Under the pieces are notes generated by a model that saw only the letters and a list, made by a program, of their open reading frames with translations, did not search any database and had not been told where the DNA came from. 32,480 nucleotides of DNA from positions 1 through 32,480 of the forward strand of contig DAOWMX010000001.1 of the NCBI GenBank assembly GCA_030642885.1. The letters are read 5' to 3'. This DNA comes from Anaerolineales bacterium (GTDB lineage Bacteria > Chloroflexota > Anaerolineae > Anaerolineales > E44-bin32). Shown piece after piece: positions 242-16,392 of the stretch (its first letter is position 1; the number at the start of each line of letters is the position of its first letter). The position numbers and the translations under genes were made by a program.

Positions 242-296
242 AAAAAACAGGCGGACATTCCACACTCCGTTCTGATGATGGAATGGGACATCCGCC
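242..296 (-). terminator. intrinsic terminator closing the long minus-strand gene train
   Basis: Minus-strand RNA reads GGCGGA-(UGUCC bulge)-CAUUCC, an 18-nt loop, then GGAAUGUCCGCC, followed directly by UGUUUUUUCCC. That is a 12-bp interrupted stem plus a U-tract, starting 38 nt after the stop codon at 334-336. Confidence 0.6.
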
Positions 297-333
297 TTTC
301 TTCTCAACAAGGTTCCCCTTTGTATAAGCGTCT

Positions 334-1794
334 TTAGATCAAACCTACACGCTCGTTGAACTCGACAATCAATCGATCGATCTCTGGTAGAAGCGCCTGG
401 ATCGAGGTCCAATAATCCCGATCGTACCACTGCGCCATGATTTCCTCGTAAGTCCGGCCCTGCTGCTCGACCCATGTGTAGTATTTTAAGTTATGGACAC
501 TGCGTCGATCCGTGTATCGAGTCTCGAGCAAATGATCGGTTTTAAGCCCATACAGGTCATTAGCGAAGTGAGCTGCGGCTTCTATCTTCAGATATTCACC
601 ATATTCCTCATGCATCTCTCTCAATCGGCTCTGATAAAGCTCCATAGAATCAGTAAAAACAGTGAGCACGATGTCGTTTTCGCCCAGTTCATAGTATTTA
701 GCGAACTTAATCGCCATTACGAGGTTGGCGATGCTGGAGAAGCCAAGCAGCTCCAGGTTGGCAATGAAAGCTTCGGGTACCCCTTTTTCAACTAGATACT
801 TATGCCCTGCTGGCTCGTTGAAGAGACGGGCCAGGTTGACAATCACATTGTCGTCGAGCGAAATGATCATATCGGTATTTTTTACATTGTGAATCCAGGG
901 GACATGTTTATCACCGATGCCTTCGATGCGATGTTCTCCAAAACCGTTCTCGAGCAAAGTCGGGCATTGCCAGGCTTCACCGGCAACAACCTTGCCTGAA
1001 GGGAAGATCTGCTTCAGGTATTCCCCACAAGCTAACGTCCCCGCTGACCCTGTGGTCAGCACTACCCCAGCGTAATTATCGTTCGGGCGAAGTTCCTTCT
1101 TAAGCACTTCCTCCATCGCATGTCCGGTGATGTCATAGTGCCAGAGGTAATTCCCAAATTCGTCAAACTGGTTGAAGATGACCACGTCGTCGCGGGTCTC
1201 GCGAAGTTCCCATGTCTTGTCGAAGATCTCTTTCACATTCGACTCGCTGCCAGGCGTGGCAATCACCTCACCCGCTACTTTTTCCAACCATTCGAAGCGC
1301 TCGCGGCTCATACCCTCTGGGAGGATGGCGATTGATTCACAAGCAAGCAGTGATGCATCATAGGCCCCACCACGACAGTAATTCCCCGTCGATGGCCAAA
1401 CTGCCTTGTCCTTAGCGGGATCAAATTGACCCGTGACTAGCCTCGGGACCAGGCATCCAAATGTTGCCCCAACTTTATGCGATCCCGTGGGCATCCATTT
1501 TCCAACCAAGGCGATGATCCGGGCACCCACACCGGTAAGTGAACTCGGAATCTCCAGATAGTTCACCCCTCCGAATCCACCGCCTTTCGGAGTGGGCTCG
1601 TTCTTCCACGTAATACGAAAGAGATTCTCCGGCGTCACATCCCAGAGCCCAAGTGAACTTAGCTTCTCTTTCATTGAATCAGGGATCAAACTCGGGTCTT
1701 TCATCTGCGCAAAAGTCGGGATGATGAAATTTCTCTCCCGCACTCTCTCGATGGTTTTCTCCAGCTTATCTTCATTAATTGTGAGATCGATCAT
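334..1794 (-). CDS. fold-type II (TrpB/CysK-like) PLP-dependent enzyme, 486 aa, substrate unknown
   Basis: Complete ORF with ATG at 1794. PTGSHKVGA (Lys107, codon 1474-1476) matches the PLP-lysine context of TrpB-type enzymes (TGSHK). STGNYCRGG is the Asn loop and TTGSAGT (aa 247-253) is the Gly-rich phosphate loop. A long helical C-terminal extension follows. The start overlaps the upstream GT2 stop by 20 nt. Confidence 0.75.
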   Translation of the reverse strand: MIDLTINEDKLEKTIERVRERNFIIPTFAQMKDPSLIPDSMKEKLSSLGLWDVTPENLFRITWKNEPTPKGGGFGGVNYLEIPSSLTGVGARIIALVGKWMPTGSHKVGATFGCLVPRLVTGQFDPAKDKAVWPSTGNYCRGGAYDASLLACESIAILPEGMSRERFEWLEKVAGEVIATPGSESNVKEIFDKTWELRETRDDVVIFNQFDEFGNYLWHYDITGHAMEEVLKKELRPNDNYAGVVLTTGSAGTLACGEYLKQIFPSGKVVAGEAWQCPTLLENGFGEHRIEGIGDKHVPWIHNVKNTDMIISLDDNVIVNLARLFNEPAGHKYLVEKGVPEAFIANLELLGFSSIANLVMAIKFAKYYELGENDIVLTVFTDSMELYQSRLREMHEEYGEYLKIEAAAHFANDLYGLKTDHLLETRYTDRRSVHNLKYYTWVEQQGRTYEEIMAQWYDRDYWTSIQALLPEIDRLIVEFNERVGLI

Positions 1795-2770
1795 GACGTT
1801 TCTTATTCCCTTCCTTTGGATTTATTTTGTTTTCTAAACTGATGGGATTCCGCACGATATAGAGCGGTCGGCCTTTAGCCTCATCATATATCCGACCGAT
1901 GTATTCCCCAAGGATCCCAAGAGAGATTAGCTGCACGCCTCCCAGAAATAATACCGCGATCAAGGTTGTTGCCTGACCAAGAAACGCCGGGCTTCCAACC
2001 AGTCTGAACGCAATCACGATAGGTATGGCGATAATACTCACGCCCGCTGCGAAAAAGCCGAGGTAGGTTGCGATCTGGAGCGGAAAGTAGGAAAAACCCG
2101 TGATGGCATTGAGCGCAAGGCGCAGCATTTTTCGAAACGGATACTTCGTCTCTCCAGCGAATCTCGCAGCTCGCTTATATGGCACTCCGGTTTGGCGGAA
2201 GCCAACCCACGCGGCCATGGCCCTTGGAAAACGATGCCTCTCGCGCATTTGAGACAGCGCATCCACTGCCTGCCGGTCCATCAATCGGAAATCCCCGGTA
2301 TCTAGCGGGATCTCAACATCGGTGATGCGGTTGATCAAGCGGTAAAACAAGGCTGCTGTGGTTTTCTTAAACCAGGTCTCGCCCTCGCGCTCCGTGCGCA
2401 CGGCGTACACGATTTCATAGCCCTCGCGCCATTTTTCAACCAAATCGGAGATGACCTCAGGCGGGTCCTGCAAATCAGAATCCATGATGATCACGGCGCG
2501 GCCCTGGCTGAAGTCCATCCCTGCAGTCACGGCGATTTGATGCCCAAAATTCCGGGCGAACATCACAGGTCTCACATGTGGATCGTCCACGCTTATCGCT
2601 TCGATCCACTCCGAGGAGCCATCCGTCGATCCATCGTCGATGAGAATGAGCTCCCATGGCTCACCCAGGTCATCCATGACCGTCTTCACCCGATCGTAGA
2701 GTTCCGGAAGCGACTCGATTTCGTTATAGACCGGCACTGCGACAGAGATGTTGATTTCGGATTTCGTCAT
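1775..2770 (-). CDS. family-2 glycosyltransferase, polyprenyl-phosphate sugar transferase type (GtrB/ArnC/DPM1-like)
   Basis: ISVAVPVYNE...LILIDDGSTDGS...IIMDSDLQDPPE is the classic GT2 DxD/ED pattern. Two C-terminal TM helices are present (FPLQIATYLGFFAAGVSIIAIPIVIAF and TLIAVLFLGGVQLISLGILGEYI). The ORF track starts at GTG 2779. I prefer ATG 2770 because GGAGGG sits 8 nt upstream, inside the end of the preceding gene. Confidence 0.8.
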   Translation of the reverse strand: MTKSEINISVAVPVYNEIESLPELYDRVKTVMDDLGEPWELILIDDGSTDGSSEWIEAISVDDPHVRPVMFARNFGHQIAVTAGMDFSQGRAVIIMDSDLQDPPEVISDLVEKWREGYEIVYAVRTEREGETWFKKTTAALFYRLINRITDVEIPLDTGDFRLMDRQAVDALSQMRERHRFPRAMAAWVGFRQTGVPYKRAARFAGETKYPFRKMLRLALNAITGFSYFPLQIATYLGFFAAGVSIIAIPIVIAFRLVGSPAFLGQATTLIAVLFLGGVQLISLGILGEYIGRIYDEAKGRPLYIVRNPISLENKINPKEGNKKRHDRSHN

Positions 2771-2775
2771 TGGCT

Positions 2776-4071
2776 TCACCCTCCGCCGTTCTTCTTCGCG
2801 CCGTCATCCAAAGCACTTTCGAGTGCTTTAAGCGTCGGTTCAATCACAAGCGGTTCACCGGCGGCATCCATCGCCCGCGCTACATCTTTCAACCCATTGC
2901 CGGTATTAAGCACAACGACACGGTCTCCCTGCGCAAGGAGGTTCTTCTCAACTGCGGCTAACAACCCGGCATAGGCAGCCGCTCCTGCGGGTTCGGCAAA
3001 CACAGCCGCCTCGCGGCCAAGCTCTGCAATCGCCTCTAAAATAGCGGAATCTGGAACTGCTATGTAAGCTCCACCGGTCTCCGTTGCGGCTCGCAAGGCG
3101 CGTAAACCATCACGCGGCTGGTCCACCGAGATGCTATCAGCCAGCGTATCTGCGCTCACCGGTTGGATCTCCTCCACGCCATCCTGGAAGGCATTATAAA
3201 TCGCAGCCGATCCTTCAGATTGGATCCCATAAAGCCGTGGGATTCTGTCGATCCAACCCAGGTTATGTAAATCTTTAAAGCCTTTATGCAAACCGGAGAT
3301 GATGTTCCCATCCCCAACGGACACGACAACAGCATCCGGCGTGGGCCATCGCTTCTTTCCAGAGCTCTCACCATCGTTTTCAATCGATAATTGTTCACAA
3401 ATTTCGAAGGCGGCGGTTTTCTTGCCCTCGGCTGTGAACGGGTTGAAACCCGTATTTCGGCAATACCAACCGAATCGCTCCGCCGCCTGAATGGTGAGAT
3501 CAAAGGCATCATCATAGGTGCCTTCGACGAGGACCACCCGTGCACCGAATATCAGGAGCTGCGCGATCTTTGCCGGTGGGGCTGTCGCCGGGGCGAGTAT
3601 TACCGCGGGCATCTTTGCCGCTGCCGCCATGCCTGCCAGCGCTGCTCCAGCGTTGCCGGTTGAAGCGGTAACGATTACTTCCACACCGATCTCCTGCCCA
3701 CGGGCAACTGCGACGGCGCTGGCGCGGTCTTTAAAAGAAGCGGTTGGGTTTCGCCCATCATCCTTCAACCAGAGCTTCTCCAGACCTAATTTCCCGGCGA
3801 TCGGCTGCAAATCGAAGAGCGGCGTCCAACCCACTGCCCTCAATGGAGTCCCCAAATGCCCCGGGTCTTGTACGGGGAGGAGCGGTAAATATCGCCAGAT
3901 GGAAGATTCCACTGAACGTCTGATGTCACCGGGTGAGACATGGCGACGAATCCTATCGTAATCAAGGATTACGTCTAAATTCCCTCCGTCATGGGGGCAG
4001 GTATATTGGACATCTTCTGGCCCAAGCTCCTGACCACAGATGGAACAGCGATAGCCTGTAAAGTTCGTCAT
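2776..4071 (-). CDS. threonine-synthase-family PLP enzyme with N-terminal Zn-ribbon (archaeal/thermophile type)
   Basis: The N-terminus YRCSICGQ...YTCPHDGG is a CxxC...CxH ribbon. TASFKDR carries the PLP lysine and ASTGNAGAA is the Asn loop. Length is 431 aa. The ATG at 4071 abuts the stop of the upstream permease gene (4072-4074) with 0 nt between them. Confidence 0.8.
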   Translation of the reverse strand: MTNFTGYRCSICGQELGPEDVQYTCPHDGGNLDVILDYDRIRRHVSPGDIRRSVESSIWRYLPLLPVQDPGHLGTPLRAVGWTPLFDLQPIAGKLGLEKLWLKDDGRNPTASFKDRASAVAVARGQEIGVEVIVTASTGNAGAALAGMAAAAKMPAVILAPATAPPAKIAQLLIFGARVVLVEGTYDDAFDLTIQAAERFGWYCRNTGFNPFTAEGKKTAAFEICEQLSIENDGESSGKKRWPTPDAVVVSVGDGNIISGLHKGFKDLHNLGWIDRIPRLYGIQSEGSAAIYNAFQDGVEEIQPVSADTLADSISVDQPRDGLRALRAATETGGAYIAVPDSAILEAIAELGREAAVFAEPAGAAAYAGLLAAVEKNLLAQGDRVVVLNTGNGLKDVARAMDAAGEPLVIEPTLKALESALDDGAKKNGGG

Positions 4072-5040
4072 TTACAGCCCTCGTTCACCGCGGATATAAG
4101 GCAAGCCCAGCGCTGCAGGTGAGCCCATGCGCTTGCGGATCGCCTCGCGTGAGCCAATCACAAGAACAACGATCGTAAATGCATAGGGCAGCATCTGCAG
4201 GAAAAATCCCCAATAAGGGTTGTAATAGAAGGGATTCCTAAGACCGAATATCTTCATCGGCCCCTGGATATCAAGGATCATTCGACGGAGAGCGCCGAAA
4301 GCGTAAGATCCTCCGGCTGCGCGTATCGGATCCCACTGTGCGAAAATCACCAGACCGATGGCGATCCACCCCTGGCCGGATGTGGTGAGATGGCTGAACC
4401 ACCCCGGAGAAACCGCCAGGCTGATCGTCGCCCCGGCAACCCCGGCGAGCATCCCGCCGACCAGAACATAGAAATAGCGCAAGCGGTTTACATTTATACC
4501 CAAGGCATCCGCGGCTGCCGGATACTCACCAATCGCTCGCAAATGCAGCCCCGGCCGCGTGCGGTTGATGTAATACCAGGCGAGAGGAACCAGCAGATAC
4601 CCCAGATAAACCATCACGCTTTGGTCTTCAAACATGATAGGGCCCAGGAAGGGAATGCTCACCAGACCTGGAATGCTAAACGAGGGTAAAAGGGCAACAG
4701 CCCCAGCCTTGCTTAACCCCTCGCCGAAAACCAGGCTCAGGCCTGTGCCGAGGAAGGTCAGAGCCAGGCCGCTTACAACCTGGTCGGCCTGAAGCTGGAT
4801 CGTGATTATTGCATGGACCTGGCTCAGCAGGCCAGCAGCGAGCATGGCGACAAACACTCCAAGCCAGGGATTGCCGGTCGCTAAAGCTGTTTTATAGGCG
4901 CTCATGGCGCCGATGAGCATCATCCCCTCAAGGCCAAGGTTTAGAATCCCCGATCTTTCGGTGAAGATCTCCCCGATGGTTGCGAATAAAAGAACCGTTC
5001 CGGAGGCGATGCCAGCATGCAGGATGATGATTGGATCCAT
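4072..5040 (-). CDS. ABC transporter permease (BMP/nucleoside-type importer, second permease)
   Basis: 322 aa, polytopic and hydrophobic throughout. It starts 2 nt after the stop of the first permease. This is the typical second membrane subunit of BMP-family uptake systems. Confidence 0.85.
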   Translation of the reverse strand: MDPIIILHAGIASGTVLLFATIGEIFTERSGILNLGLEGMMLIGAMSAYKTALATGNPWLGVFVAMLAAGLLSQVHAIITIQLQADQVVSGLALTFLGTGLSLVFGEGLSKAGAVALLPSFSIPGLVSIPFLGPIMFEDQSVMVYLGYLLVPLAWYYINRTRPGLHLRAIGEYPAAADALGINVNRLRYFYVLVGGMLAGVAGATISLAVSPGWFSHLTTSGQGWIAIGLVIFAQWDPIRAAGGSYAFGALRRMILDIQGPMKIFGLRNPFYYNPYWGFFLQMLPYAFTIVVLVIGSREAIRKRMGSPAALGLPYIRGERGL

Positions 5041-5042
5041 GT

Positions 5043-6176
5043 CTACGCCTCCTGCCCGATTTGCACAAGCCTTATCCGATTGCGGAGTAAGAAATCACTT
5101 CCAATAAGACAGACCAGGATGATCCCCTGGATAAGCATAGGAATACCGGATGGTTGGATCTCCCTGCCAGCCAGGAGCAGCCCACCGAAGAGAATCGAAA
5201 TCGGAACGACCAAAATAGGATTGAGTTTCGCCAGCCAGGCGATGATGATTCCCGTGAAGCCATAGCCGGAGGAGATCGCCCCCTGAAGGCGGTGTACAAC
5301 CCCAGAGATCTCCAACATGCCACCCAACCCCGCCAGTGCACCTGAAAGCATCATCACCAGGATCGTATTCCTGACGATGTTGATCCCCGCGTAGCGCGCG
5401 GCGCGCGGGTTGTCTCCAATCAAGCGAATCTCGTACCCCCACCGGCTGCGGTACATAATCCACCACACCACCCCAGCGGCAATTAAGGCTATGACGAATC
5501 CTAGATGGATGGTAAGCCCTCGAAACATTGGCACCTGAGCTGAGTAATCCGTCAATCGCGGCAGCCAGGCCGTTTTGGGAAACTGACGGCTCATCTGGAA
5601 TCCGCCTTCGGACCATACATCGAAGATGAAATAGTTGTTCCACGCCACAGCGATGTAGTTCATCATTAGCGTCGATATGATTTCATTGACATTGTATTTC
5701 GCTTTCAAATAGCCAGGAATAAATCCCCATAAAGCGCCCGCGAGCATACCCATGATCATCATCGCCGGGATCATCAGCCACGGCGAAGTCTCTGGCGGAA
5801 GAATGGGTGTTAGCACGACTAAACTTGCCCCGAAGGCACCCAAGTAGAATTGACCTTCAGCGCCAATATTCCACAGGCGCATCCTGAAGGCGACAACCGC
5901 TGCCAAACTGACGAGAATGAGCGGAGTAGCTTTTACCAAAGTGTCGGAGAACACGCCGATATCACCAAAAGCAGCTTTGGCCATGAAGGCATAGGCACGG
6001 AAGGGATCTCCACCCACGAGCATTAATACGATCCCTCCAAGAACCAATGCAAAAGTTACAGCGCCAAGCGAAACGATTAATCCCAGCCACCCCGGTTGCT
6101 TCATGCGGGGTTCCATCCGCAAACGGAACCGTGCTCCACCACGGTATTGAGCAAATAATGAAGGCTTGGTCGTCAT
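5043..6176 (-). CDS. ABC transporter permease (BMP/nucleoside-type importer, first permease)
   Basis: 377 aa, polytopic. Its start overlaps the ATPase stop by 4 nt (ATGA). Confidence 0.85.
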   Translation of the reverse strand: MTTKPSLFAQYRGGARFRLRMEPRMKQPGWLGLIVSLGAVTFALVLGGIVLMLVGGDPFRAYAFMAKAAFGDIGVFSDTLVKATPLILVSLAAVVAFRMRLWNIGAEGQFYLGAFGASLVVLTPILPPETSPWLMIPAMMIMGMLAGALWGFIPGYLKAKYNVNEIISTLMMNYIAVAWNNYFIFDVWSEGGFQMSRQFPKTAWLPRLTDYSAQVPMFRGLTIHLGFVIALIAAGVVWWIMYRSRWGYEIRLIGDNPRAARYAGINIVRNTILVMMLSGALAGLGGMLEISGVVHRLQGAISSGYGFTGIIIAWLAKLNPILVVPISILFGGLLLAGREIQPSGIPMLIQGIILVCLIGSDFLLRNRIRLVQIGQEA

Positions 6177-7744
6177 TGACTCACCTTCCTTGCCTCGACC
6201 AGATCCTCCTGGCGAGTCCCGGTCATCATTAGACCCAATGTTTCAGGGTCAGCTTCCCTCACCTCACCCATGATTTCTCCCTCATAAATCACGTAAACAC
6301 GATCCGAGAGCGAGATGAGTTCTTCCAATTCCTCCGAGATAAGAAGGATCGCAGCGCCATTCTCGCGCTGCTGGAGCAGCAAGCGTTGAACGGATTCTAT
6401 CGCCCCAACGTCCAACCCGCGCGTTGGCTGCATGGCAATCATCAATTTCGGCTCACAGGAGATCTCGCGCGCAAGAATCAAACGTTGTAGATTTCCTCCC
6501 GAGAGCAAACGTGCAGGGGTTTCCACTGTCGGCACCATGATGTCATAGGCTTCACGCAGCGTTTCTGCTTGAGTGGTAGCAGAGAGGCTGTCAATGGACC
6601 ACCCTTTCGAGATAGGCGGTTTCCGATACCCTTTCATGATCAGGTTGTCAGTGATGCTGAGGTTAGGGGCAGTACCGACATGGGTCCGATCCTCAGGGAT
6701 GTGTGAAACGCCCGCATCGATTATCTGTCTTACATGGCTTGACCTGCGCTGCCCTGAGATACTTCCATCAATGAGCACTTGCCCATGCACAATCACTTTT
6801 CCTTCTGTGATCGGGCGAAGACCGGTAATAGCTTCAGCCAACTCCGCTTGCCCATTTCCAGCCACACCGGCCAAGCCGACGATCTCACCAGCCGCAACGT
6901 GTAGAGATAAGCCGCGTAAAGCCTGAATGCCTTTATTGTTCAAAGCCTTGAGCCCTTCCACAGCCAGAACAGTGTCCCCAGGAGTATGCTCGACCTTATT
7001 CAATTGGAAGAGTACGTCGCGACCTACCATCTCGCGCGCCAGGTCCTGCTTCGTTATCTCTTTCGTAAGCAAACCCTCTGCGCTGAGCTTCCCCTTGCGC
7101 AAGACTGTAATCCGATCTGCAATCGCCATGACTTCGTCGAGCTTATGGCTGATGAAGATGATAGATTTCCCCTCGGCAATCATGGATCGAAGTGTAGTGA
7201 ACAGTTCTTGAATCTCCTGCGGGGCCAAGACCGCTGTTGGCTCGTCCATGATGAGCACTTTCGCTCCACGATAGAGCATCTTTAGTATCTCCACACGCTG
7301 CTGCTCACCGACGGACAATTGCCAGATTCTTGCTCGTGGGTCGACCTGTAAACCATACTGTTCCCCGAGTTCGGTGATGATTTGATCATAATGAGATAAA
7401 TTCATATTAAAGCGCGGTTCATCGAGGCCCAGGAGGATATTTTCCGTCACGGTTTGAGTGGGCACGAGCATAAAGTGCTGGTGGACCATGCCAATCCCGT
7501 AGTTGATGGCATCTCGCGGGGATCGCAGATCAACAACCTCACCATCAACCCGGATCGTACCTTCATCGGGCCTATATAATCCCGTGAGGATATTCACCAG
7601 GGTGCTCTTGCCTGCGCCGTTTTCGCCCAACAAGGCGTGGATCTCACCAGACCGCAAGGTGAAATCAACCTGGTCATTCGCCAAGACACCGGGAAACTGT
7701 TTAGAAATCCCTCTTAACTCAACAACATTGAGGTGGTCATCCAT
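6173..7744 (-). CDS. ABC transporter ATP-binding protein with two fused ATPase domains
   Basis: Walker A GENGAGKST and GVAGNGQ, signature LSVGEQQR and LSGGNLQR, Walker B LIMDEPT. The track starts at ATG 7777. I prefer ATG 7744 (MDDHLNVVELRGISKQF) because GGAG lies 7 nt upstream, while 7777 sits in the loop of the 7764-7792 hairpin. Confidence 0.85.
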   Translation of the reverse strand: MDDHLNVVELRGISKQFPGVLANDQVDFTLRSGEIHALLGENGAGKSTLVNILTGLYRPDEGTIRVDGEVVDLRSPRDAINYGIGMVHQHFMLVPTQTVTENILLGLDEPRFNMNLSHYDQIITELGEQYGLQVDPRARIWQLSVGEQQRVEILKMLYRGAKVLIMDEPTAVLAPQEIQELFTTLRSMIAEGKSIIFISHKLDEVMAIADRITVLRKGKLSAEGLLTKEITKQDLAREMVGRDVLFQLNKVEHTPGDTVLAVEGLKALNNKGIQALRGLSLHVAAGEIVGLAGVAGNGQAELAEAITGLRPITEGKVIVHGQVLIDGSISGQRRSSHVRQIIDAGVSHIPEDRTHVGTAPNLSITDNLIMKGYRKPPISKGWSIDSLSATTQAETLREAYDIMVPTVETPARLLSGGNLQRLILAREISCEPKLMIAMQPTRGLDVGAIESVQRLLLQQRENGAAILLISEELEELISLSDRVYVIYEGEIMGEVREADPETLGLMMTGTRQEDLVEARKVSQ

Positions 7745-7763
7745 ACTCAGCTCCGAAGATGAC

Positions 7764-7792
7764 GGGTCGACGCCCATATCGGACGTCGACCC
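7764..7792 (-). promoter_or_regulatory. intercistronic stem-loop between the binding-protein gene and the ATPase gene
   Basis: GGGTCGACG (7764-7772) and CGTCGACCC (7784-7792) form a perfect 9-bp GC-rich inverted repeat with an 11-nt loop. On the coding (minus) strand it is preceded by an A-run and is not followed by a U-run. Confidence 0.5.
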
Positions 7793-7814
7793 TTTTTCTG
7801 TTTATTTGTGTGGA

Positions 7815-9017
7815 CTACTCCGGCAATTCCGCAGTAATGCCCTCAGCCCACCACTTCATGCAGTACTCGCAGCCTAACCCAAACTCGGGGAAGGCATCCA
7901 GGTCAACTTGCTCAAGCGCTTTACCTTCGGGAACAATCAGATTGCCTTGATTGTCATAGATCGGGCCTGAGAACACATCAAAGCGGGTGAAATCTCCCAC
8001 CAGGGTGTCGGCCACCAGGTCACGAACAGCCTGGATCACATCTTCCGGAAGCTCAGCAACACCGGGCTGCAACTCCTCACCCTCCATGAAGCCGTACAGG
8101 CCGAGTGCTCCGGTATCACCATCAAAGTAATCCCAACCGGGGGTATAGGTCCCCGCGATCACGCCTTCGGCGATCTCCGCGTAAACCGGTCCCCAAACCC
8201 AGTAGGGCGCGGTCAGGCAGGCGTCGATTTTGCAGGAGCCGTACCAGTCATAGGTGACGCCCCATTTGCCCTTTTCCTGCGCTACATCAGCAACTGCTGG
8301 GGTGTCAGCACCCGTGAACACTACCTGTGCACCGGCATCGAACAACGAGGCTGCGGCCTCTTTCTCGATGATGGGATCATGCCAGGTGTTGATCCAGCGC
8401 ACGTCAAGCGTGCACTCCGGGCAGGTTTCCCTCATCCCCAACGCAATAGCGTTGCCGAGGCGGATCTCCTCCGGGATCGGGAAAGTCGCCATGTACCCCA
8501 GCTTCGGGTTTCCATCCATTTGTGCCCGTGCGCCAGCAAGCATCCCTGCCATGTACTTCATGTTTTCCATGGCACCGAACAGGTTGCCGAAGTTGGTCAT
8601 GTTGGATTTTATGCCCGAGATGTGGATATACGTGACATCCGGGAATTCTTCGGCGAGGACTTCCATGGGGTCCATGTAGCCAAAGGATGTGCCAAAGATC
8701 AGATCAAAGCCTTTCCGCGAGAGGCTGCGGAAAATCTGCTCCGAGTCAGCTCCCTCGGGTACGTTCTCGATATAGGCTATGTGGACATCCGGAACATTCT
8801 CTGCGACATATTCCAGGCCTTCGAAGTGCGCCTGGGACCAGCCACCATCGTCGTGAGGACCAATCAGGACCATGGCAATATTGAACTTGCCCTCTTCCAC
8901 CGCGGGGATCTCGAAACCTCCCACGACTTCCGGTGCCTCTTCCCCACCGCAGGCTGTAAGTGCCAGAGCCAACAGGGTAAGGAGAACAGCTAGGCGTAAC
9001 GCCATACTTCGTGACAT
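7815..9017 (-). CDS. BMP-family ABC substrate-binding lipoprotein (purine nucleoside-binding type)
   Basis: 400 aa. Signal peptide with lipobox LALALTAC-GG. The mature part has the BMP/PnrA-like pattern (NIAMVLIGPHDDGGWSQAHFEGL...). AGAGGAG lies 7 nt upstream of the ATG. Confidence 0.85.
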   Translation of the reverse strand: MSRSMALRLAVLLTLLALALTACGGEEAPEVVGGFEIPAVEEGKFNIAMVLIGPHDDGGWSQAHFEGLEYVAENVPDVHIAYIENVPEGADSEQIFRSLSRKGFDLIFGTSFGYMDPMEVLAEEFPDVTYIHISGIKSNMTNFGNLFGAMENMKYMAGMLAGARAQMDGNPKLGYMATFPIPEEIRLGNAIALGMRETCPECTLDVRWINTWHDPIIEKEAAASLFDAGAQVVFTGADTPAVADVAQEKGKWGVTYDWYGSCKIDACLTAPYWVWGPVYAEIAEGVIAGTYTPGWDYFDGDTGALGLYGFMEGEELQPGVAELPEDVIQAVRDLVADTLVGDFTRFDVFSGPIYDNQGNLIVPEGKALEQVDLDAFPEFGLGCEYCMKWWAEGITAELPE

Positions 9018-10081: not shown

Positions 10082-10096
10082 TCACAAACCTCCAAA

Positions 10097-11264: not shown

Positions 11265-12218
11265 TCACTCCATAGCGCCGAGGACGGACGCCAACAGCCC
11301 CATGCGCATGACCACACCATTGAACGCTTCCAGCCAGTATCGAGACCAACGTGTGGCGTCAACATCGGGAGGAATCTCATCCATCCGCGGCAGGGAGTGC
11401 AATAGGATCGCGTCCGACTTTGCTTTACCGGACAGCAGTTCACGCGTGATCTTGTAATTCGCGGGTGTCAAGCCGACGTCCCCATCCCGTTCGTCACGGG
11501 ATTTGGTGTAATCCGGCTGGACGACCGGCTCTACCAAGATTACATCCGCTTCACTAATCGCTTGCTCCACATGTTCTGCCTCAGCGAAATCGAGACTGAG
11601 TAGTTCAAGCTCTTCTTTAAACTCATCCGTGAGAGACATCTCAGGCGGGGATACGAACGTGATCGGACAATCAAATTGGGTCAGGCCATAGGCTAAGGAG
11701 TGCATTGTTCGCATGCGCATATCGCCAACAGCCAGCCAGCGAAGCCCATCTAGACGGCCTTTCTCCTGATGTACAGTGTACAGGTCGGTGAGTATCTGAG
11801 TCGGGTGTTCCCCCCAGCCATCACCGCCGTTGATAATCGGAATAGAAGCCCATTTCGCGGCCTCATGCGGCGCGCCCTGCTCGAAATGCCGCATCACGAT
11901 CACATCACCGTAGAACTCCAGCATCTTCACTGTGTCCTTAATCGACTCCTGATAGTAATCTCCCGCCCGAGTCATCTTTGCATCGGCAAAGCCTGTCACT
12001 TGCCCGCCCAGGCGTATCATCGCTGCTTCGTGAGCAAGACGGGTTCGAGTGCTTGGTTGGTAGAAAGCTGTAACCAGCGTTTTCTCTGATAGCAAATCTG
12101 TATTGCGTCGATCGCGCGCAAATGGCGCCAAACGGTCACACACTTCGAAAATTCGGTAATACTCTTCCCTCTCAAATCCTTTTAGGGAAAGTATGTCTCG
12201 TCCAGAAAAACTGCGCAT
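11265..12218 (-). CDS. aspartate-carbamoyltransferase-like (PyrB paralogue) transcarbamylase, non-canonical second-substrate site
   Basis: QPSTRTR, VMRH, GEHPTQ, GDMRMRTMHS and HSLPRMDEI match ATCase catalytic-chain motifs. The (T/L)RxQxER aspartate-binding segment is replaced by VEPVVQPDYTKSRDERDGD. The track start 12290 gives a basic, non-homologous extension. I use ATG 12218 (MRSFSGRDILSLKGF) because GGAGGAG lies 8 nt upstream. Confidence 0.75.
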   Translation of the reverse strand: MRSFSGRDILSLKGFEREEYYRIFEVCDRLAPFARDRRNTDLLSEKTLVTAFYQPSTRTRLAHEAAMIRLGGQVTGFADAKMTRAGDYYQESIKDTVKMLEFYGDVIVMRHFEQGAPHEAAKWASIPIINGGDGWGEHPTQILTDLYTVHQEKGRLDGLRWLAVGDMRMRTMHSLAYGLTQFDCPITFVSPPEMSLTDEFKEELELLSLDFAEAEHVEQAISEADVILVEPVVQPDYTKSRDERDGDVGLTPANYKITRELLSGKAKSDAILLHSLPRMDEIPPDVDATRWSRYWLEAFNGVVMRMGLLASVLGAME

Positions 12219-12292
12219 GAATCTACTCCTCCATTTCCTTTTTTTGTACTCGTCGTTTTGTCTGTCCCTAATTTTTCCCCCTTGCCTCACGC

Positions 12293-13036
12293 TTATGGCA
12301 ACCGACGGTTAATATGAAATCGAAAGGTGCCTGGCAAGAAATAACTATACGTGTGGTCGATCACTTCTCCATCTTTTGAATAAAGCTGGGCTTCGAAGAA
12401 CAGCAAGGCATCCCCGCGCTGAATTTTCAGATGACGGGCCACCTCCGGGGAAGCCGATACTGCGGTGATATCTGTGGGAGATTGCCAGATTTCAGGTTCA
12501 TCTCGCTGAAGGAGTACTTCCAGGACCGAACCCCGGAATTCACCTGCTTTGATATCCACAGGCAGATATTTTTCCGGGAGAATGTCAATAAGGAAGGCAA
12601 CAGGTCTCCCTTCTGTCAAGATCACCCTCGAGATTTCGATCAATGGAAGTTCATTTCCCCATCTGAATCGCTGCAGTTCTTCCTCTGTCGCTGTCCGCTC
12701 CCTGATTTCCAGATCCCCCGTCTCGACCTTAAGGCCGATCCGATCTGCGAGCCGCTCGATACTCTCCAGGGTTTCGAGCCCGGTGTCAATCACATGAGGT
12801 AGTTGAGTAACGTACGTGCCCACACCCTGACGACGTACGATCCTCCCTCGACGCTCGAAGATTCTCATCGCCTCGCGCAGGGTCGCGCGTGAAACCCCAA
12901 GGCTGCGGGCTAATTTTGGTTCAGACGGAAGATACGTCCCTGGTTCGACGCTCTCAAGGATCTCAGAAAGAGTCTCAGCTGTACTTTCATAAAGAGGGCG
13001 GCGCTTTGTCTCTTCTCGTATTTCCATTCGACTCAT
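12293..13036 (-). CDS. GntR-family transcriptional regulator, HutC subfamily (winged HTH plus UTRA-like effector domain)
   Basis: The N-terminal YLPSEPKLARSLGVSRATLREAMRIFERRGRIVRRQGVGTYV is a GntR wHTH. The roughly 160-aa C-terminal domain fits UTRA size. The track ORF (start 13204) would overlap the adenine deaminase gene by 122 nt with a Cys/Trp/Leu-rich extension. I use ATG 13036; ATG 13027 is an alternative. Confidence 0.8.
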   Translation of the reverse strand: MSRMEIREETKRRPLYESTAETLSEILESVEPGTYLPSEPKLARSLGVSRATLREAMRIFERRGRIVRRQGVGTYVTQLPHVIDTGLETLESIERLADRIGLKVETGDLEIRERTATEEELQRFRWGNELPLIEISRVILTEGRPVAFLIDILPEKYLPVDIKAGEFRGSVLEVLLQRDEPEIWQSPTDITAVSASPEVARHLKIQRGDALLFFEAQLYSKDGEVIDHTYSYFLPGTFRFHINRRLP

Positions 13037-13082
13037 TTCTTCACTCGCGTTGTCAGCTTCATGGGACCGATATTTTAAGAGC

Positions 13083-14879
13083 CTAATCCCCGCCTTCCAC
13101 CACAGGAATAACTTCAAAACGGTTAACGTCAACGAGACCTTTATCGGAGATTCGCAGATCGGGAATAACAACGAGTGCCAGAAGACTGAGCTGCATATTG
13201 GCATTGTTCAAGTTGCAGCCACATTCTTTAAAAGCGTCGAGAACGCGTTCAGCCTTCTCAGCGACGATCTCTGCCCGTTCTTCCGACATCAAGCCCGCGA
13301 TCGGCAGCTCTACCAAGGCGACAGTTTTCCCCTCGCGGATAACGATCTGTCCACCGCCTACCTCCGCGAGCCGATTGGCGGCCAGAGCCATATCCGTCTC
13401 ATTTGTCCCGACGACGATCATATGGTGAGAATCATGGGCTACGGTTGAGGCGATGGCGCAGGGGCGATCGAAACCAAACCCGTGGACAAACCCTACTTGA
13501 ACTTCGCCCGTCGCCTGGTGACGCTCAACAAGCGCAACCTTGGCGAGATCCTGTTTGATATCAACTGCGATCGTTCCATCTACCGCCTTCATTTCCATCT
13601 TAAGATGTTGCGTCGGAGCCTGGTTCTCAATGACTCCGATGACGTTGACAGTAAAAACACCATCTTTTGAGACATCGACAGAAAAATCTTCTGCGCGGAG
13701 TTCTTTTCCAAGGCGGACGGAAGACTTCACCTCAGGCGGATATACAAAATCGGGGATATCCACCAGAAGTTCTCCATCCTCGGCAATGAGCCTGCCACGT
13801 GCAAAGACCATCTCTGCAGCAAAGGATTCCAGCTCGCCTACGAGCAGTAGGTCTGCATACCGCCCGGGAGCGATCTGTCCGATATCGCCGGCGAGGCCAA
13901 AATGCTCCGCGGTGTTGAGCGTTGCCATCTGAATAGCGGTGATCGGCTCCAGACCCTGCTCGATTGCATGCCGCACAACTCGATCCATGTGCCCATCATG
14001 CACTAATGTCCCGGAGTGGCTGTCATCGGTTACCAGGAGGAAATGGCGAGGGTCGAGACCCTCTTCCGTGACAGCTCGCACCTGACTCGCCACGTCATGC
14101 CACGCTGACCCGAGCCTCATCATCACCTTCATGCCCTGGCGGGCACGCGCGAGCGCATCCTCCAGACGGGTGCCCTCGTGGTCATCTTCCGGTCCCCCGG
14201 CAACGTAACCGTGGAACGGCTTACCCAGGTCAAGCGAGGCATAGTGCCCTCCGATGACCTTTCCTGCAGCGCGGGTTTCCGCCATCTCCAGGTGCATTTT
14301 CTCGTCACTGTTAAAGACACCCGGGAAGTTCATCATTTCGCCTAACCCAATAATCCCCGGCCAGGACAGCGCCTCGGCAACTTCCTCAGGGCCAATCGCG
14401 GCGCCGGGCGTCTCCAAGCCCGGAGCGGATGGCACACAAGATGGAACCTGTACCCACACATGAATAGGCTGAATAGCCGCCTCATCTGCCATGAGACGCA
14501 CACCATCAAGCCCGAAGACATTTGCGATCTCATGTGGGTCGATGAACATCCCTGTCGTGCCGCGCGGGGCCACCGCACGTACAAACTCTCCAACCGTGAT
14601 CATGCCCGACTCAACATGCATATGGCCATCCAACAAGCCGGGGACAATATGGCGGCCTTCTGCCTCGATAACTCGAGTGTCAGGCCCTATGATGTGACTC
14701 GCGTCCTGGCCTACAAAGGCAATGCGTTCCCCAAAAATCGCAACGGAGATTCCTGGGAGGATTTCCCCGGACTGAACGCAAACCCATCGACCGCCGCGTA
14801 TGACGACATCCGCCGGTTTTCTGCCCATGGCGACATCGACGAGTGATCGGCTTAATTCGCTCAAACTTTTAGTATCCAT
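13083..14879 (-). CDS. ade: adenine deaminase
   Basis: About 598 aa. VIRGGRWV...ILPGISVAI, the HMHVESG metal motif, FIDPHEIANV and the large C-terminal domain are typical of Ade/AdeC. I prefer ATG 14879 (MDTKSL) because AGAGAGGAAG lies immediately upstream. GTG 14894 from the track has no SD sequence. Confidence 0.85.
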   Translation of the reverse strand: MDTKSLSELSRSLVDVAMGRKPADVVIRGGRWVCVQSGEILPGISVAIFGERIAFVGQDASHIIGPDTRVIEAEGRHIVPGLLDGHMHVESGMITVGEFVRAVAPRGTTGMFIDPHEIANVFGLDGVRLMADEAAIQPIHVWVQVPSCVPSAPGLETPGAAIGPEEVAEALSWPGIIGLGEMMNFPGVFNSDEKMHLEMAETRAAGKVIGGHYASLDLGKPFHGYVAGGPEDDHEGTRLEDALARARQGMKVMMRLGSAWHDVASQVRAVTEEGLDPRHFLLVTDDSHSGTLVHDGHMDRVVRHAIEQGLEPITAIQMATLNTAEHFGLAGDIGQIAPGRYADLLLVGELESFAAEMVFARGRLIAEDGELLVDIPDFVYPPEVKSSVRLGKELRAEDFSVDVSKDGVFTVNVIGVIENQAPTQHLKMEMKAVDGTIAVDIKQDLAKVALVERHQATGEVQVGFVHGFGFDRPCAIASTVAHDSHHMIVVGTNETDMALAANRLAEVGGGQIVIREGKTVALVELPIAGLMSEERAEIVAEKAERVLDAFKECGCNLNNANMQLSLLALVVIPDLRISDKGLVDVNRFEVIPVVEGGD

Positions 14880-14918
14880 CTTCCTCTCTTTCACAATGTA
14901 GGGTATGGAACCAATAGC

Positions 14919-16298
14919 TCAATCCCTATTCGCTAGATTTAATGCCACGCGATTATGGGTCTCTATTAGCGATGGAAGTTCGACGGGCTGCAGCTCCCCC
15001 TCTGAAACTACCGCCCGGCCATGGACATAGTTGTAATCGACATGCACAGGATTACAGAAGAACATCGCCGCTAATGGATCGTGAAGCGCACCCGAAAAGT
15101 CAACACGGTCTAAGTTCATAGCGATGAAATCCGCGCACATACCTTCCTGGAGGGCTCCGATATCATCCCTCCCTAAAACCTCCGCCCCTCCAATGGTAGC
15201 CAGAGCGAGAACCTGACGGGCAGTCAGCAATGATTCCTCGCCGTCGATCTCCGGAGCTACAGCAGCTCCAACGCGCGAGAGCAGCATTGCCTGGCGTGCT
15301 TCTGCGATCAGATGAGAGCTATCATTGCTTGCCGAACCATCAACGCCGATACTAACTTTCACACCTCGTGATAAAAACCGTCGAATAGGCGCGATTCCTG
15401 AGGCGAGGCGCATGTTGGATGATGGACAATGCGCTACACCCATACCACCATCCGCCATCCGCTCGACCTCTTCGGGGTTGATATGAACAGCATGCGCAAA
15501 CCAAACATCCTCCCCGGCCCAATCCAGCATCTCAACGTATTCCAGGGGACGATGCCCAAACTTGTTTACACAAAACGATTCTTCATCTAGCGTTTCCGCA
15601 AGATGCGTATGGAGATGAACACCGCTAGACCTGGCAAGAGCTGCACTCTCCCGCATGAGATCCGGCGTAACTGAGAACGGCGAGCAAGGGGCAACGACGA
15701 TCCTGACCATCGCTCCCGGGTTGGGATCATGATAGGTCTCGATCACCCGCTGTGTATCCTTGAGAATAAACTCCTCTGCCTCCACAACATCATCGGGGGG
15801 CAGCCCGCCCTTGCTTTCCCCCAGGCTCATGGAGCCTCTACTGGCATGCAGGCGCATACCCATGCCTCGAGCCGCTTCGATCTGATCATCGAGTCGACAG
15901 TCATTTGGGAATATATAATGGTGGTCAGATGTCGTCGTACAGCCAGATAATGCCAGTTCAGCTAACCCTAACTGGGTGGATACACGGATAGCTTCCGGTG
16001 TAAGCCCGGCCCAAATAGGATATAAGGTTTTTAACCAACTGAAGAGATCGGCATCCTGCGCTTGAGGAATTACGCGCGTGAGGGTTTGGTACAGATGATG
16101 ATGTGTGTTTACCAGACCGGGGAGAACAATATGTCCATCGAGGTCGAGGATTTCATCGGCTTTCTTGGGAAGTTCGTCAGTGGGACCAACCTGCTTGATC
16201 CAACCGTTTTCGGCGTAAAAACCTCCATTTGGGATCTCACGCCGTTGACCATCCATCGTGACAAGAAGCATGGCATTACGGATCAATAACGTCGCCAT
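14919..16298 (-). CDS. amidohydrolase of the 8-oxoguanine/guanine deaminase (SsnA/AtzB-like) group
   Basis: LPGLVNTHHHLYQTLTR, HLHTHLAE, FAHAVH and VDGSASND are the metal and catalytic motifs of the COG0402-type deaminases. I use ATG 16298 (MATLLIRNAMLL) because GGGAGGG lies 4-5 nt upstream. The track start 16352 falls inside the promoter. Confidence 0.8.
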   Translation of the reverse strand: MATLLIRNAMLLVTMDGQRREIPNGGFYAENGWIKQVGPTDELPKKADEILDLDGHIVLPGLVNTHHHLYQTLTRVIPQAQDADLFSWLKTLYPIWAGLTPEAIRVSTQLGLAELALSGCTTTSDHHYIFPNDCRLDDQIEAARGMGMRLHASRGSMSLGESKGGLPPDDVVEAEEFILKDTQRVIETYHDPNPGAMVRIVVAPCSPFSVTPDLMRESAALARSSGVHLHTHLAETLDEESFCVNKFGHRPLEYVEMLDWAGEDVWFAHAVHINPEEVERMADGGMGVAHCPSSNMRLASGIAPIRRFLSRGVKVSIGVDGSASNDSSHLIAEARQAMLLSRVGAAVAPEIDGEESLLTARQVLALATIGGAEVLGRDDIGALQEGMCADFIAMNLDRVDFSGALHDPLAAMFFCNPVHVDYNYVHGRAVVSEGELQPVELPSLIETHNRVALNLANRD

Positions 16299-16312
16299 CA
16301 GCCCTCCCTGGA

Positions 16313-16387
16313 TTGACAACGCGAGTCTAGCATCTCCATCTAAATGCGTCAATTGTCAGACAACATAGACAGGGCGGATAATTGTCA
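16313..16387. promoter_or_regulatory. cluster of TTGTCA/TGACAA operator-like half-sites overlapping the promoter
   Basis: The perfect palindrome TTGTCAGACAA (16353-16363) abuts the -35. TTGACAA (16313-16319) is at the predicted transcription start and TTGTCA (16382-16387) lies upstream. AATTGTCA occurs twice (16351-16358 and 16380-16387). These are plausible sites for the GntR/HutC regulator encoded in the same train. Confidence 0.4.
16324..16352 (-). promoter_or_regulatory. sigma70-type promoter for the amidohydrolase-led gene train
   Basis: Minus strand: TTGACG (16352-16347), a 17-nt spacer, then TAGACT (16329-16324). This lies about 25 nt upstream of ATG 16298 and just downstream of the folD terminator. 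Confidence 0.55.
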
Positions 16388-16392
16388 TACTT

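Follow-up and report, generated by a model that had tools for sequence, protein, structure and literature searches.

A predicted purine-catabolic operon of Anaerolineae that pairs two transcarbamylases with a carbamate kinase

Few fermenters of digesters, sediments and the subsurface are as abundant as the Anaerolineae or as hard to bring into culture, and their energy sources are poorly defined. In a 32,480 nucleotide stretch from an Anaerolineales bacterium (GenBank assembly GCA_030642885.1, contig DAOWMX010000001.1, positions 1 to 32,480; the whole stretch is called the window here), 13 genes on the minus strand encode, in order, an 8-oxoguanine/guanine-type deaminase (oxoGD), an adenine deaminase (ade), a GntR/HutC-family regulator (gntR), a PyrB-like and an ornithine transcarbamylase-like (OTC-like) transcarbamylase, a carbamate kinase (CK), a four-gene ATP-binding cassette (ABC) importer of the Bmp family, a ThrC-like enzyme dependent on pyridoxal phosphate (PLP), a GT2 glycosyltransferase and a second PLP enzyme, of 486 aa (PALP-486). 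What does such a gene set do, and is it, as an initial annotation of the sequence had proposed, an undescribed system that by itself imports and ferments purines or ureides? Our analysis led to a narrower answer, which we regard as probable though by no means certain: that the operon is the Anaerolineae form of the funnel, the importer and the lower, ATP-yielding module of reductive, 2,8-dioxopurine-type purine and urate catabolism, under HutC-type control. The system cannot be called undescribed, as the pathway was solved in 2025 (10.1101/2025.04.24.650524; PMC12507026) and a pseudo-aspartate transcarbamylase (pseudo-ATCase) beside a ygeW homologue was reported in 2013 (PMC4016543). Nor is it self-contained, because every ring-reducing or ring-opening enzyme is missing from the window, which holds only the funnel, the importer and the lower module.

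Recurrence of the block and its uricolytic neighbours

Conservation of the block beyond this genome was checked by scanning the species genomes of GTDB with the PyrB-like protein. This gave 599 pattern matches, with at least 572 confirmed relatives, nearly all of them from metagenome-assembled genomes (MAGs) of Anaerolineae/Chloroflexota, together with the isolate Thermanaerothrix solaris. The locus counts given below rest on the best 80 of these at least 572 relatives (PyrB-like proteins 80-98% identical), which represent different species-level genomes; the window proteins were mapped onto the 80 loci (numbered with the prefix L) and all open reading frames (ORFs) of these loci were clustered. 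A core of PyrB-like, OTC-like, CK, ThrC-like and PALP-486 was conserved, with oxoGD, ade, folD, the Bmp ABC system and GT2 as optional members. The OTC-like gene adjoined the PyrB-like gene in 67 of the 68 loci with sufficient sequence, CK was present in 60/65 and the ThrC-like gene in 40/80. In minimal loci (e.g. L019, L024, L030, L036 and L044) the ThrC-like and PALP-486 genes directly followed CK, and otherwise they came after an inserted Bmp ABC system. A GntR gene lay directly upstream of the transcarbamylase pair in 53/76 loci; the typical targets of HutC-type regulators are catabolic operons. The arrangement thus recurs over 80 loci and the block is no chance adjacency.

At least one marker of the reductive uric-acid (2,8-dioxopurine) pathway was found within 10 kb of the core in 24/80 loci, which bears out the catabolic, purine-linked character originally proposed for the block. 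Beside the core were SsnA (TIGR03314, 504 against a cutoff of 455), YgeY (TIGR03526, 461 against 321; 14 loci, usually between gntR and the transcarbamylase pair) and D-hydantoinase (TIGR02033, 514 against 393; the allantoinase model gave 232), and further neighbours were the Mo, FAD and FeS subunits of xanthine dehydrogenase (XDH), F420 oxidoreductases of the luciferase-like monooxygenase (LLM) class, a YgfK-like protein of 1052 aa, and YqeC, XdhC-like and MocA-like proteins. The order of genes in L041 is HyuA, XdhC-like, an unassigned 268-aa ORF, MocA-like and YqeC (these five on the opposite strand), followed by XDH-Mo, SsnA, the two transcarbamylases, CK, PALP-486, ThrC-like, FeS, FAD, YgfK-like and oxoGD; here the transcarbamylase pair takes the slot of YgeW (and YgeY) and the two PLP enzymes that of YgeX. 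L057 reads XDH-Mo and XDH-FAD (opposite strand), ThrC-like, (PALP-486-like), F420 LLM, YgeY, the two transcarbamylases, CK, SsnA, XDH-FAD/FeS, XDH-Mo and HyuA, and L026 reads XDH subunits, CK, the two transcarbamylases, ThrC-like, PALP-486, F420-oxidoreductase-like, XDH-Mo, SsnA and oxoGD. In L026 and L041 the ThrC-like gene therefore lies inside the uricolytic cluster, though not in the same order, and in L057 it is found at the cluster's upstream end, its context being the ureide core and not hom/thrB; oxoGD stands beside a true SsnA in L026 and shares the cluster with SsnA in L041. Loci of the window type also have such neighbours, with XDH genes right after the ABC transporter in L055 and L078 and an F420 LLM gene two genes upstream of folD in L045. 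In the 32-kb window itself no XDH or other molybdo-dehydrogenase, dearomatising reductase, SsnA, hydantoinase or YgeY was found; domain and family searches agreed with the initial annotation on the absence of the molybdo-dehydrogenase, the hydantoinase and YgeY.

In the pathway as solved, YgeW splits off one ureido group of 2,3-diureidopropionate by phosphorolysis and YqeA makes ATP from the carbamoyl phosphate (10.1101/2025.04.24.650524), while the other group is left to hydrolysis by YgeY and pyruvate is formed from diaminopropionate by YgeX (10.1101/2025.04.24.650524; PMC12507026); the two papers disagree on which ureido group YgeW attacks. The window resembles the corresponding cluster of Escherichia coli and Clostridium sporogenes (xdhD-ygfM, ygfK, ssnA, hyuA, ygeW, ygeY, ygeX and yqeA) in having a YgeW-class transcarbamylase beside a YqeA-like CK (51% identical to E. 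coli YqeA), one or more fold-type II PLP enzymes at the end of the pathway, and attached genes for a purine deaminase and an importer, and the related Anaerolineae loci add SsnA, HyuA, YgeY, XDH, YqeC, XdhC-like and MocA-like neighbours. It differs in lacking the upper-pathway genes, in the second, ATCase-derived transcarbamylase that is always present here, and in the ThrC-like and CysK/CBS-like enzymes that stand in place of YgeX. It also has a Bmp ABC importer instead of NCS2 permeases, a GntR/HutC regulator instead of the sigma-54 regulator YgeV, and an embedded GT2. With its two transcarbamylases and its pair of PLP enzymes other than YgeX, the locus is a variant of the E. coli ygeW region rather than a copy, as had been suggested.

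A nearer parallel is provided by the SsnA clusters of Chloroflexota, which lack YgfK and UacX, have a luciferase-family F420 reductase and lie near PF00185 and PF00291 genes (PMC12507026). These clusters come from the same phylum, and the replacement of YgfK/UacX by an F420 luciferase-like reductase (as in L037, L045 and L057) and the PF00185 and PF00291 genes are common to both. However, that survey gives co-occurrence at the level of Pfam only, at which the two transcarbamylases, the pseudo-ATCase and the non-YgeX PLP pair are not resolved, and SsnA-lacking loci such as the window lie outside its coverage. With the arginine deiminase, agmatine deiminase and allantoin-oxamate routes the operon would share the phosphorolysis of a ureido compound to carbamoyl phosphate and the formation of ATP by carbamate kinase; the substrates of those routes are different, no deiminase of their kind is found here, and the tandem transcarbamylases fall below the cutoffs for ornithine transcarbamylase (OTCase) and putrescine transcarbamylase (PTCase).

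The conserved enzymes

Subfamilies were assigned by profile searches against Pfam and NCBIfam and sequence searches of the PDB, with an AlphaFold2 (AF2) model and Foldseek for PALP-486. The labels given initially held for 12 of the 13 genes (Table 1).

In aspartate transcarbamylase (ATCase), R229 and Q231 of the RxQ motif in the 240s loop bind aspartate, and K84 comes from the neighbouring chain. The PyrB-like protein, whose best PDB match was the Pyrococcus abyssi ATCase and which is nearest to the archaeal-type ATCases, missed the cutoff of TIGR00670 marginally, by 1 bit, and reached 211.8 against NF002032 (cutoff 263). It retains STRTR, R105, HPTQ and R167, the binders of carbamoyl phosphate and the alpha-carboxylate. 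Three changes were invariant in 67/67 orthologues: K84 is replaced by Y, HPLP by HSLP, and the RxQ motif is gone, with VEPVVQPDYTK(S/A)RDER, which carries a 5-residue insertion, standing for the TR(I/V)QKER of ATCase. The references for this comparison were E. coli PyrB and the P. abyssi sequence from the structure-database search. A MAFFT alignment with E. coli PyrB alone set the K and R of TKSRDER under R229 and Q231, a placement that the P. abyssi row (ungapped, with P and V at these positions) identified as an artefact of gap placement; basic residues from the TKSRDER loop could still contribute to the site.

Among representatives of clusters at 50% identity the PyrB-like proteins formed a discrete clade (members 70-74% identical), beyond which lie relatives of 44-48% identity with the same TRAGD(Y/F)Y 80s loop and then the canonical ATCases at about 40%. 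Neither the window nor the 80 loci had any pyr gene, such as pyrC, pyrI, pyrD or pyrF, near the PyrB-like gene. At the level of the class, a canonical PyrB (KGE, TRIQRER, HPLPRVDEI) is present in Anaerolineae MAGs, in a pyrB-F-E-D-K-C operon. Between hits to canonical PyrB and proteins of the cluster, the closest accessions (MBE9470720 and MBE9478741) lay about 8,000 apart and thus probably belong to different MAGs. Judged by its motifs, the PyrB-like gene is no ordinary pyrB. It shows instead the marks by which Barba recognised pseudo-ATCases, namely STRT and HPTQ retained, HSLP present and RxQ lost, and the V-Q-P in its RxQ region agrees with the "VXP" of subgroup 3. In the published scheme subgroup 1 contains the assayed ureidoglycine/allantoate transcarbamylase (UGTCase, Rxyl_2847) beside a carbamate kinase, subgroup 2 (Nocardioides JS614) adjoins a ygeW homologue, xdhABC and hyuA, and subgroup 3 has HSLP with VxP and lies next to HyuC-like genes (PMC4016543). 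Placed from these published motifs only, the PyrB-like protein fits subgroup 3 by motif (HSLP with VxP) and subgroup 2 by context. It thus shares with the pseudo-ATCases the ATCase branch, STRT and HPTQ, H(S/T)LP in place of HPLP, the loss of RxQ and a purine-catabolic context with carbamate kinase; unlike it, the only subgroup with an assayed function, subgroup 1, has different motifs, and UGTCase keeps the lysine equivalent to K84 where the protein described here has Y. A separate observation concerns an Anaerolineae MAG (L086 and L087; JBRAHT010000004.1 and JBRAEO010000001.1) with a PyrB, P0506, that has fully canonical ATCase motifs and no pyr operon, its gene being flanked by an aminotransferase gene and two gene sets of the xanthine dehydrogenase type.

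The OTC-like protein fell below every NCBIfam cutoff for OTC, N-acetylornithine transcarbamylase (AOTC), putrescine transcarbamylase (PTC) and YgeW: it scored 253 against a cutoff of 306 for NF001986, 241 against 281 for TIGR00658, 250 against 288 for NF003384 (AOTC), and only 182 against 500 and 187 against 453 for the YgeW models TIGR03316 and NF005538. It is 35% identical to E. coli YgeW and 70 residues shorter (326 against 396 aa), and its best PDB match was the Pyrococcus OTCase. The motifs nevertheless follow YgeW: NMQC aligns with YgeW NLQC (the Q160 position, E144 in AOTCase), HPFQ is present in both, SWAYASSYLKPISVPQS is the counterpart of YgeW TWAYSPSYGKPLSVPQG, with a proline-rich loop (SWAY..SY.KP.SVPQ), and YAKSWG and YMHPLPAD align with YPKSWA and YMHCLPAD. 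The roles of Q160 and K270 as substrate anchors, and of related residues, have been described (PMC4581275). All three extensions of YgeW were absent from the alignment, and because the terminal helices and the long 240s loop are missing we call the protein compact YgeW-class and not a YgeW equivalog. Marks of OTCase and AOTCase were also lacking, with no SMG motif, Q at the E144 position and no arg genes nearby in the 80 loci. The Xanthomonas AOTCase ArgF' (PDB 3kzc) shares with it the length of the proline-rich loop, YAKSWG with the equivalent of K252 and, by sequence, the knotted class, but differs in E144 (Q here, as in YgeW), in HPCQ for HPFQ, in its extended 80s and 120s loops and in its arg context. 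The protein is, on these motifs, YgeW-like and neither ArgF nor ArgF'. CK follows after a gap of 15 nt.

Both transcarbamylases were more conserved than the other genes compared, with median identities to the window of 85% and 82% as compared to 62-69% for CK, ThrC-like, oxoGD, ade and folD, and about 58% for the canonical PyrB within the class. As third codon positions were near saturation for all genes compared (0.34-0.43), the high identity reflects purifying selection and not recent transfer. A complex that channels carbamoyl phosphate is a possible reason for conservation at 82-85%.

Both PLP enzymes are of fold-type II, from families whose members generate aminoacrylate out of beta-substituted alanines. 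For the ThrC-like enzyme the closest model was NF006050 (PRK08197; 282, below the cutoff of 303), and its best PDB matches were threonine synthases. PALP-486 was far under the cutoffs of the CysK and CBS models, and its AF2 model, of only moderate confidence (pLDDT 67, pTM 0.76), had O-acetylserine sulfhydrylase (OASS), cystathionine beta-synthase (CBS) and beta-cyanoalanine synthase as top Foldseek matches; in databases its relatives are named only "PLP-dependent protein subunit beta" or "cysteine synthase". It had been labelled TrpB-like, the one label that had to be replaced: NCBIfam, the PDB sequence search and Foldseek all ranked CysK/OASS, CBS and beta-cyanoalanine synthase first, with no TrpB among the top matches, and the enzyme is accordingly described as CysK/CBS-like.

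Table 1. Genes and signals of the gene train, in order of transcription, with positions in the window.
Feature	Position	Strand	Length (aa)	Assignment and evidence
Promoter-like match	16324..16352	-		TTGACG-17-TAGACT with TG extension; sigma-70-like, 9/12 consensus positions, 26 nt before the oxoGD ATG at 16298
oxoGD	16298-14919	-	459	8-oxoguanine/guanine-type deaminase; NF006055 673 bits (672.9), cutoff 532
ade	14879-13083	-	598	Adenine deaminase; TIGR01178 509 (508.9), cutoff 472.5; Adenine_deam_C domain
gntR	13036-12293	-	247	GntR/HutC-family regulator; PF00392 HTH and PF07702 UTRA effector domain
PyrB-like	12218-11265	-	317	"Pseudo-ATCase" transcarbamylase by motif; OTCace fold; TIGR00670 235.8, cutoff 236.95
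OTC-like	11077-10097	-	326	Compact YgeW-type (knotted-class) transcarbamylase by motif; OTCace fold; shares YgeW motifs
CK	10081-9122	-	319	Carbamate kinase; TIGR00746 369 (368.9), cutoff 358.25
Bmp	9017-7815	-	400	Bmp/PnrA-family substrate-binding protein of ABC importer, purine base/nucleoside type; PF02608 118 bits
Intercistronic hairpin	7745..7814	-		Between Bmp and ATPase genes; perfect 12-bp stem GGGUCGACGUCC...GGGCGUCGACCC, -26.3 kcal/mol, z -3.5, no clean U-run
ABC ATPase	7744-6173	-	523	PF00005 in two matched stretches (two ABC_tran domains)
ABC permease 1	6176-5043	-	377	PF02653; 4-nt overlap with ATPase gene
ABC permease 2	5040-4072	-	322	PF02653; 2 nt from permease 1, 0 nt to ThrC-like gene
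ThrC-like	4071-2776	-	431	Fold-type II PLP enzyme; N-terminal CxxC...CPH zinc-ribbon; TIGR00260 193, cutoff 167
GT2	2770-1775	-	331	PgfS/ArnC-type polyprenyl-phosphate glycosyltransferase-like; PF00535 117 bits; NF047588 272, cutoff 500
PALP-486	1794-334	-	486	CysK/CBS-like PLP enzyme with N- and C-terminal extensions; PF00291 45 bits (weak)
Intrinsic terminator	242..296	-		Closes the operon; hairpin -26.5 kcal/mol, z -4.9, 0/200 shuffles fold equally well, then UGUUUUUU

A proposed route and its competitors

Family memberships, motif states, synteny and conservation were established directly here, and substrate specificity is argued from motifs. In the route that we propose, the Bmp ABC system would import purine bases or nucleosides, adenine deaminase would convert adenine to hypoxanthine, and the 8-oxoguanine/guanine-type deaminase, going by its family, would convert 8-oxoguanine or guanine to urate or xanthine. 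Reduction and opening of the ring to a diureido acid, by analogy 2,3-diureidopropionate, would fall to XDH/XdhD, an F420- or YgfK-type reductase, SsnA and a hydantoinase; as none of these is encoded in the window, and the same core adjoins them in relatives, they would have to be encoded elsewhere in the genome. The compact YgeW-type enzyme and the pseudo-ATCase may then each phosphorolyse one ureido group, to give two carbamoyl phosphates. In the assignment that we prefer, the YgeW-like enzyme would take the 3-ureido group and the ATCase-derived enzyme the N-alpha-carbamoyl group of 3-amino-2-ureidopropionate. In this analogue of carbamoyl-aspartate an amine replaces the beta-carboxylate, so that an active site without the cationic K84 and R229 would make sense. 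The order of the two cleavages is tentative, because the two papers of 2025 disagree on the regiochemistry of YgeW. Both carbamoyl phosphates would be used by CK with ADP to give ATP and carbamate, so that a purine would yield two ATP, compared with a single one in E. coli, in which the second ureido group is lost to hydrolysis by YgeY. Finally, the ThrC-like and CysK/CBS-like enzymes may replace YgeX in converting 2,3-diaminopropionate to pyruvate (or serine/cysteine) and ammonia. This double substrate-level phosphorylation, in which a co-evolving mini-YgeW and pseudo-ATCase cleave both ureido groups of 2,3-diureidopropionate, perhaps in a channelling complex with CK, and two PLP enzymes replace diaminopropionate ammonia-lyase, is offered as a tentative possibility.

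Several observations weigh against the assignment of the operon to reductive purine catabolism. No uricolytic marker was found within 10 kb of the core in 56/80 loci, and genes for XDH, a reductase, SsnA, a hydantoinase or YgeY were lacking from the vicinity of the core both in the window and in its closest relatives (L003 and L005-L009), so that a source of the diureido substrate in this organism is only presumed. The pseudo-ATCase is not simply a substitute for YgeY, because 14 loci hold YgeY together with both transcarbamylases. The ThrC-like protein passes the cutoff of TIGR00260, a threonine-synthase equivalog model, and there is no YgeX orthologue, both PLP enzymes being at most 25% identical to YgeX (25% for the ThrC-like enzyme) and NF006058 giving 54 against a cutoff of 276. 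GT2 has no evident link to ureide chemistry and no place in the scheme. Lastly, constraint at the level of 82-85% identity is more than one would usually expect of an accessory catabolic enzyme, and might be a sign that the transcarbamylases have a more central role.

Against these points must be set how the alternatives fare. It is unlikely, for instance, that the operon is a mosaic in which the transcarbamylase/CK module, the deaminases, the importer and the ThrC-like/GT2/PALP-486 tail are independent and are co-transcribed by accident. The modules are separable across loci, where the deaminases (oxoGD in 38 of 62 related loci with sufficient upstream sequence, ade in 35/66), the ABC system and GT2 come and go; GT2 is without a plausible role in ureide chemistry and a strong hairpin follows the Bmp gene. 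However, the ThrC-like and PALP-486 genes directly follow CK in the minimal loci and stay in the uricolytic clusters despite reshuffling (L026 and L041), and the junctions of the train are tight or overlapping. Furthermore, the slot after CK, occupied by a Bmp system in 28/80 loci, is filled by two non-orthologous Bmp ABC systems, with binding proteins either 64-89% or 25-35% identical to that of the window (positions 4072-9017 were compared with L009, L021, L033, L040, L052, L053, L056, L066, L073 and L077), and two such systems in one slot argue for selection on function. For GT2 itself a mosaic origin is possible.

An oxidative ureide route is improbable. Here the pseudo-ATCase would be an enzyme of the UGTCase type acting on allantoate (or on ureidoglycine or oxalurate), as proposed for Rubrobacter xylanophilus, and the second transcarbamylase would act on the next ureide. 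The pseudo-ATCase family does include an experimentally supported UGTCase beside a carbamate kinase (PMC4016543), the H(T/S)LP motif is held in common, and allantoate is the lower homologue of 2,3-diureidopropionate. But no uricase, HIU hydrolase, OHCU decarboxylase or allantoinase was found in the window or the 80 loci, where the neighbours are the reductive markers SsnA, YgfK-like or F420 reductases and a D-hydantoinase that scores far better with TIGR02033 (514) than with the allantoinase model (232). The subgroup 1 motifs of UGTCase (HPLA; AIA/AIS) do not match either, and UGTCase keeps K106, which corresponds to K84.

Catabolism of pyrimidines, hydantoins or N-carbamoyl amino acids makes an equally poor candidate. 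On this account the transcarbamylases would act on beta-ureidopropionate and beta-ureidoisobutyrate, or on N-carbamoyl amino acids brought in from outside, with the purine genes as mere neighbours. A gene of the dihydropyrimidinase family lies beside the core in 5 loci, the YgfK-like protein carries the Fe-S domain of dihydropyrimidine dehydrogenase, the possibility of a catabolic transcarbamylase for beta-alanine has been raised (PMC4581275), and the subgroup 3 pseudo-ATCases, with the same HSLP and VxP, adjoin HyuC-like genes. Yet the same hydantoinase family includes E. coli HyuA (IPR011778 in PMC12507026), and the presence of SsnA, YgeY, XDH, adenine deaminase and 8-oxoguanine deaminase marks the context as purine-specific; the 80 loci contained no PydA-type or Rut genes, and for beta-alanine the fold-type II PLP enzymes would have no role. 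For the relatives a pyrimidine or hydantoin route is possible.

Least probable of all is a housekeeping super-operon of pyrB, argF', a carbamate kinase serving as carbamoyl-phosphate synthetase (as in Pyrococcus), thrC and cysK, for which the Pyrococcus ATCase and OTCase as best PDB matches, the scores of the ThrC-like and PyrB-like proteins with TIGR00260 (passed) and TIGR00670 (1 bit under), the very strong purifying selection on both transcarbamylases throughout the class and the database names "ornithine carbamoyltransferase" and "cysteine synthase" can be cited, but which is contradicted by the loss of K84 and RxQ with HSLP in 67/67 PyrB-like orthologues, by the canonical pyrBFEDKC operon of Anaerolineae, by an OTC-like protein with YgeW motifs, no AOTCase E144 and no arg genes nearby, by the HutC-type regulator and by the repeated synteny of the core with SsnA, YgeY, HyuA and XDH. 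Pyrococcus-type biosynthesis, with carbamate kinase channelling to OTCase and ATCase, was rejected on motifs and synteny.

With the operon read as part of reductive purine catabolism, the pathway class, its Chloroflexota variant and the pseudo-ATCase/YgeW pairing are already in print. What appears to be undescribed is the obligatory tandem of mini-YgeW and pseudo-ATCase over hundreds of Anaerolineae species, the ThrC-like/PALP-486 pair in place of YgeX, and the double phosphorolysis that these imply. If both ureido groups are indeed phosphorolysed, the ATP yield would be twice as high as in E. coli or Clostridium, first functions would be assigned to pseudo-ATCase subgroups 2/3 and to two unnamed PLP families, and purine fermentation would characterise the class Anaerolineae as a whole. 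A niche, the scavenging of nucleobases from necromass, would be defined by an operon that occurs in hundreds of species-level genomes and makes ATP from purine-derived ureides. The operon bears on three orphan groups, these being pseudo-ATCase subgroups 2/3 (orphan since 2013), the compact YgeW class and the ThrC-like/486-aa PLP pair, and could help to decide which ureido group YgeW-type enzymes attack. A fully phosphorolytic variant with two ATP per purine would also be relevant to the engineering of uricolytic probiotics, where flux is set against energy conservation.

Transcription signals, accessory genes and minor observations

Gene coordinates are those of the source assembly's own calls (an identical stretch is found on a metagenome scaffold of the European Nucleotide Archive), mapped to the window. 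The 13 ORFs run head to tail from 16298 to 334, bounded by the folD terminator and the terminator that closes the operon. In gene order the junctions are gaps of 39, 46, 74, 187, 15, 104 and 70 nt, an overlap of 4 nt, gaps of 2, 0 and 5 nt and an overlap of 20 nt; five gaps exceed 40 nt and all junctions from the ATPase gene on are tight. This layout, including the strong terminator, reproduces that first described for the train. GT2 lies 5 nt after the ThrC-like gene (a 4-nt overlap if the longest ORF is taken) and overlaps the PALP-486 gene by 20 nt; it occupied the same position in 18/80 loci and was missing from the minimal-core loci.

Because folD, directly upstream, ends in a terminator hairpin of its own (-21 kcal/mol, z -4.4), a new transcription unit begins at the train and folD is probably outside the operon's transcript. 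The promoter that had been placed before oxoGD is plausible by position, but a match at 9 of 12 positions is in itself no evidence: matches of this type were not enriched in the window relative to shuffled sequence (17 seen, 14 +/- 3.6 expected). The start at 16352 (TTG) given for the first gene in the ORF list is probably wrong. Around the promoter-like site (16310-16390, minus strand) there are TGACAAT-like repeats, two direct and one inverted, which are a candidate GntR operator. When 8-mers ahead of the PyrB-like gene were searched for operators, nothing but coding sequence of gntR was recovered.

On folding of the larger internal gaps, no terminator-like structure was seen except the 12-bp hairpin between the Bmp and ATPase genes, which may serve in mRNA stabilisation or attenuation and could raise expression of the binding protein relative to the remaining transporter genes. 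The 187-nt gap between the transcarbamylase genes had no significant structure (z -1.1), and its length varies across loci. No riboswitch or other RNA element in the window matched Rfam at gathering thresholds.

The oxoGD protein is distinct from SsnA, as the SsnA models gave only 114-127 bits and its identity was 27% to E. coli GuaD and 24% to SsnA. The remaining genes of the window are of the housekeeping kind and include folD, a Ser/Thr kinase, an M14 peptidase, an ECF sigma/anti-sigma pair, gyrB, EPSP synthase and a LacI regulator. The kinase (710 aa if the longest ORF is taken) has PD40 repeats and, like folD (together 16453-19675), was syntenic with the operon throughout the clade of the window (L003, L005-L009 and L025).

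Some features of individual loci were also seen. An Anaerolinea MAG (L037:2958-6329) has two extra ThrC-like genes upstream of its cluster, 32% identical to that of the window, one of them fused to a response-regulator receiver domain. L041 (JACNLC010000070.1), which has the most E. coli-like complete uricolytic cluster, and L029 (CAWANH010000028.1) are labelled Neomarinimicrobiota and Eisenbacteria, respectively; their PyrB-like proteins are 84-85% identical to those of Anaerolineae, a sign of misbinning or lateral transfer. In at least 10 loci (L017, L022, L027, L031, L044, L049, L052, L065, L072 and L074) small genes for TIGR02436 "four helix bundle protein" and an unannotated family of 184-aa ORFs were inserted in gaps of the cluster, either between the transcarbamylase genes or before CK (e.g. 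L072:12435-12860).

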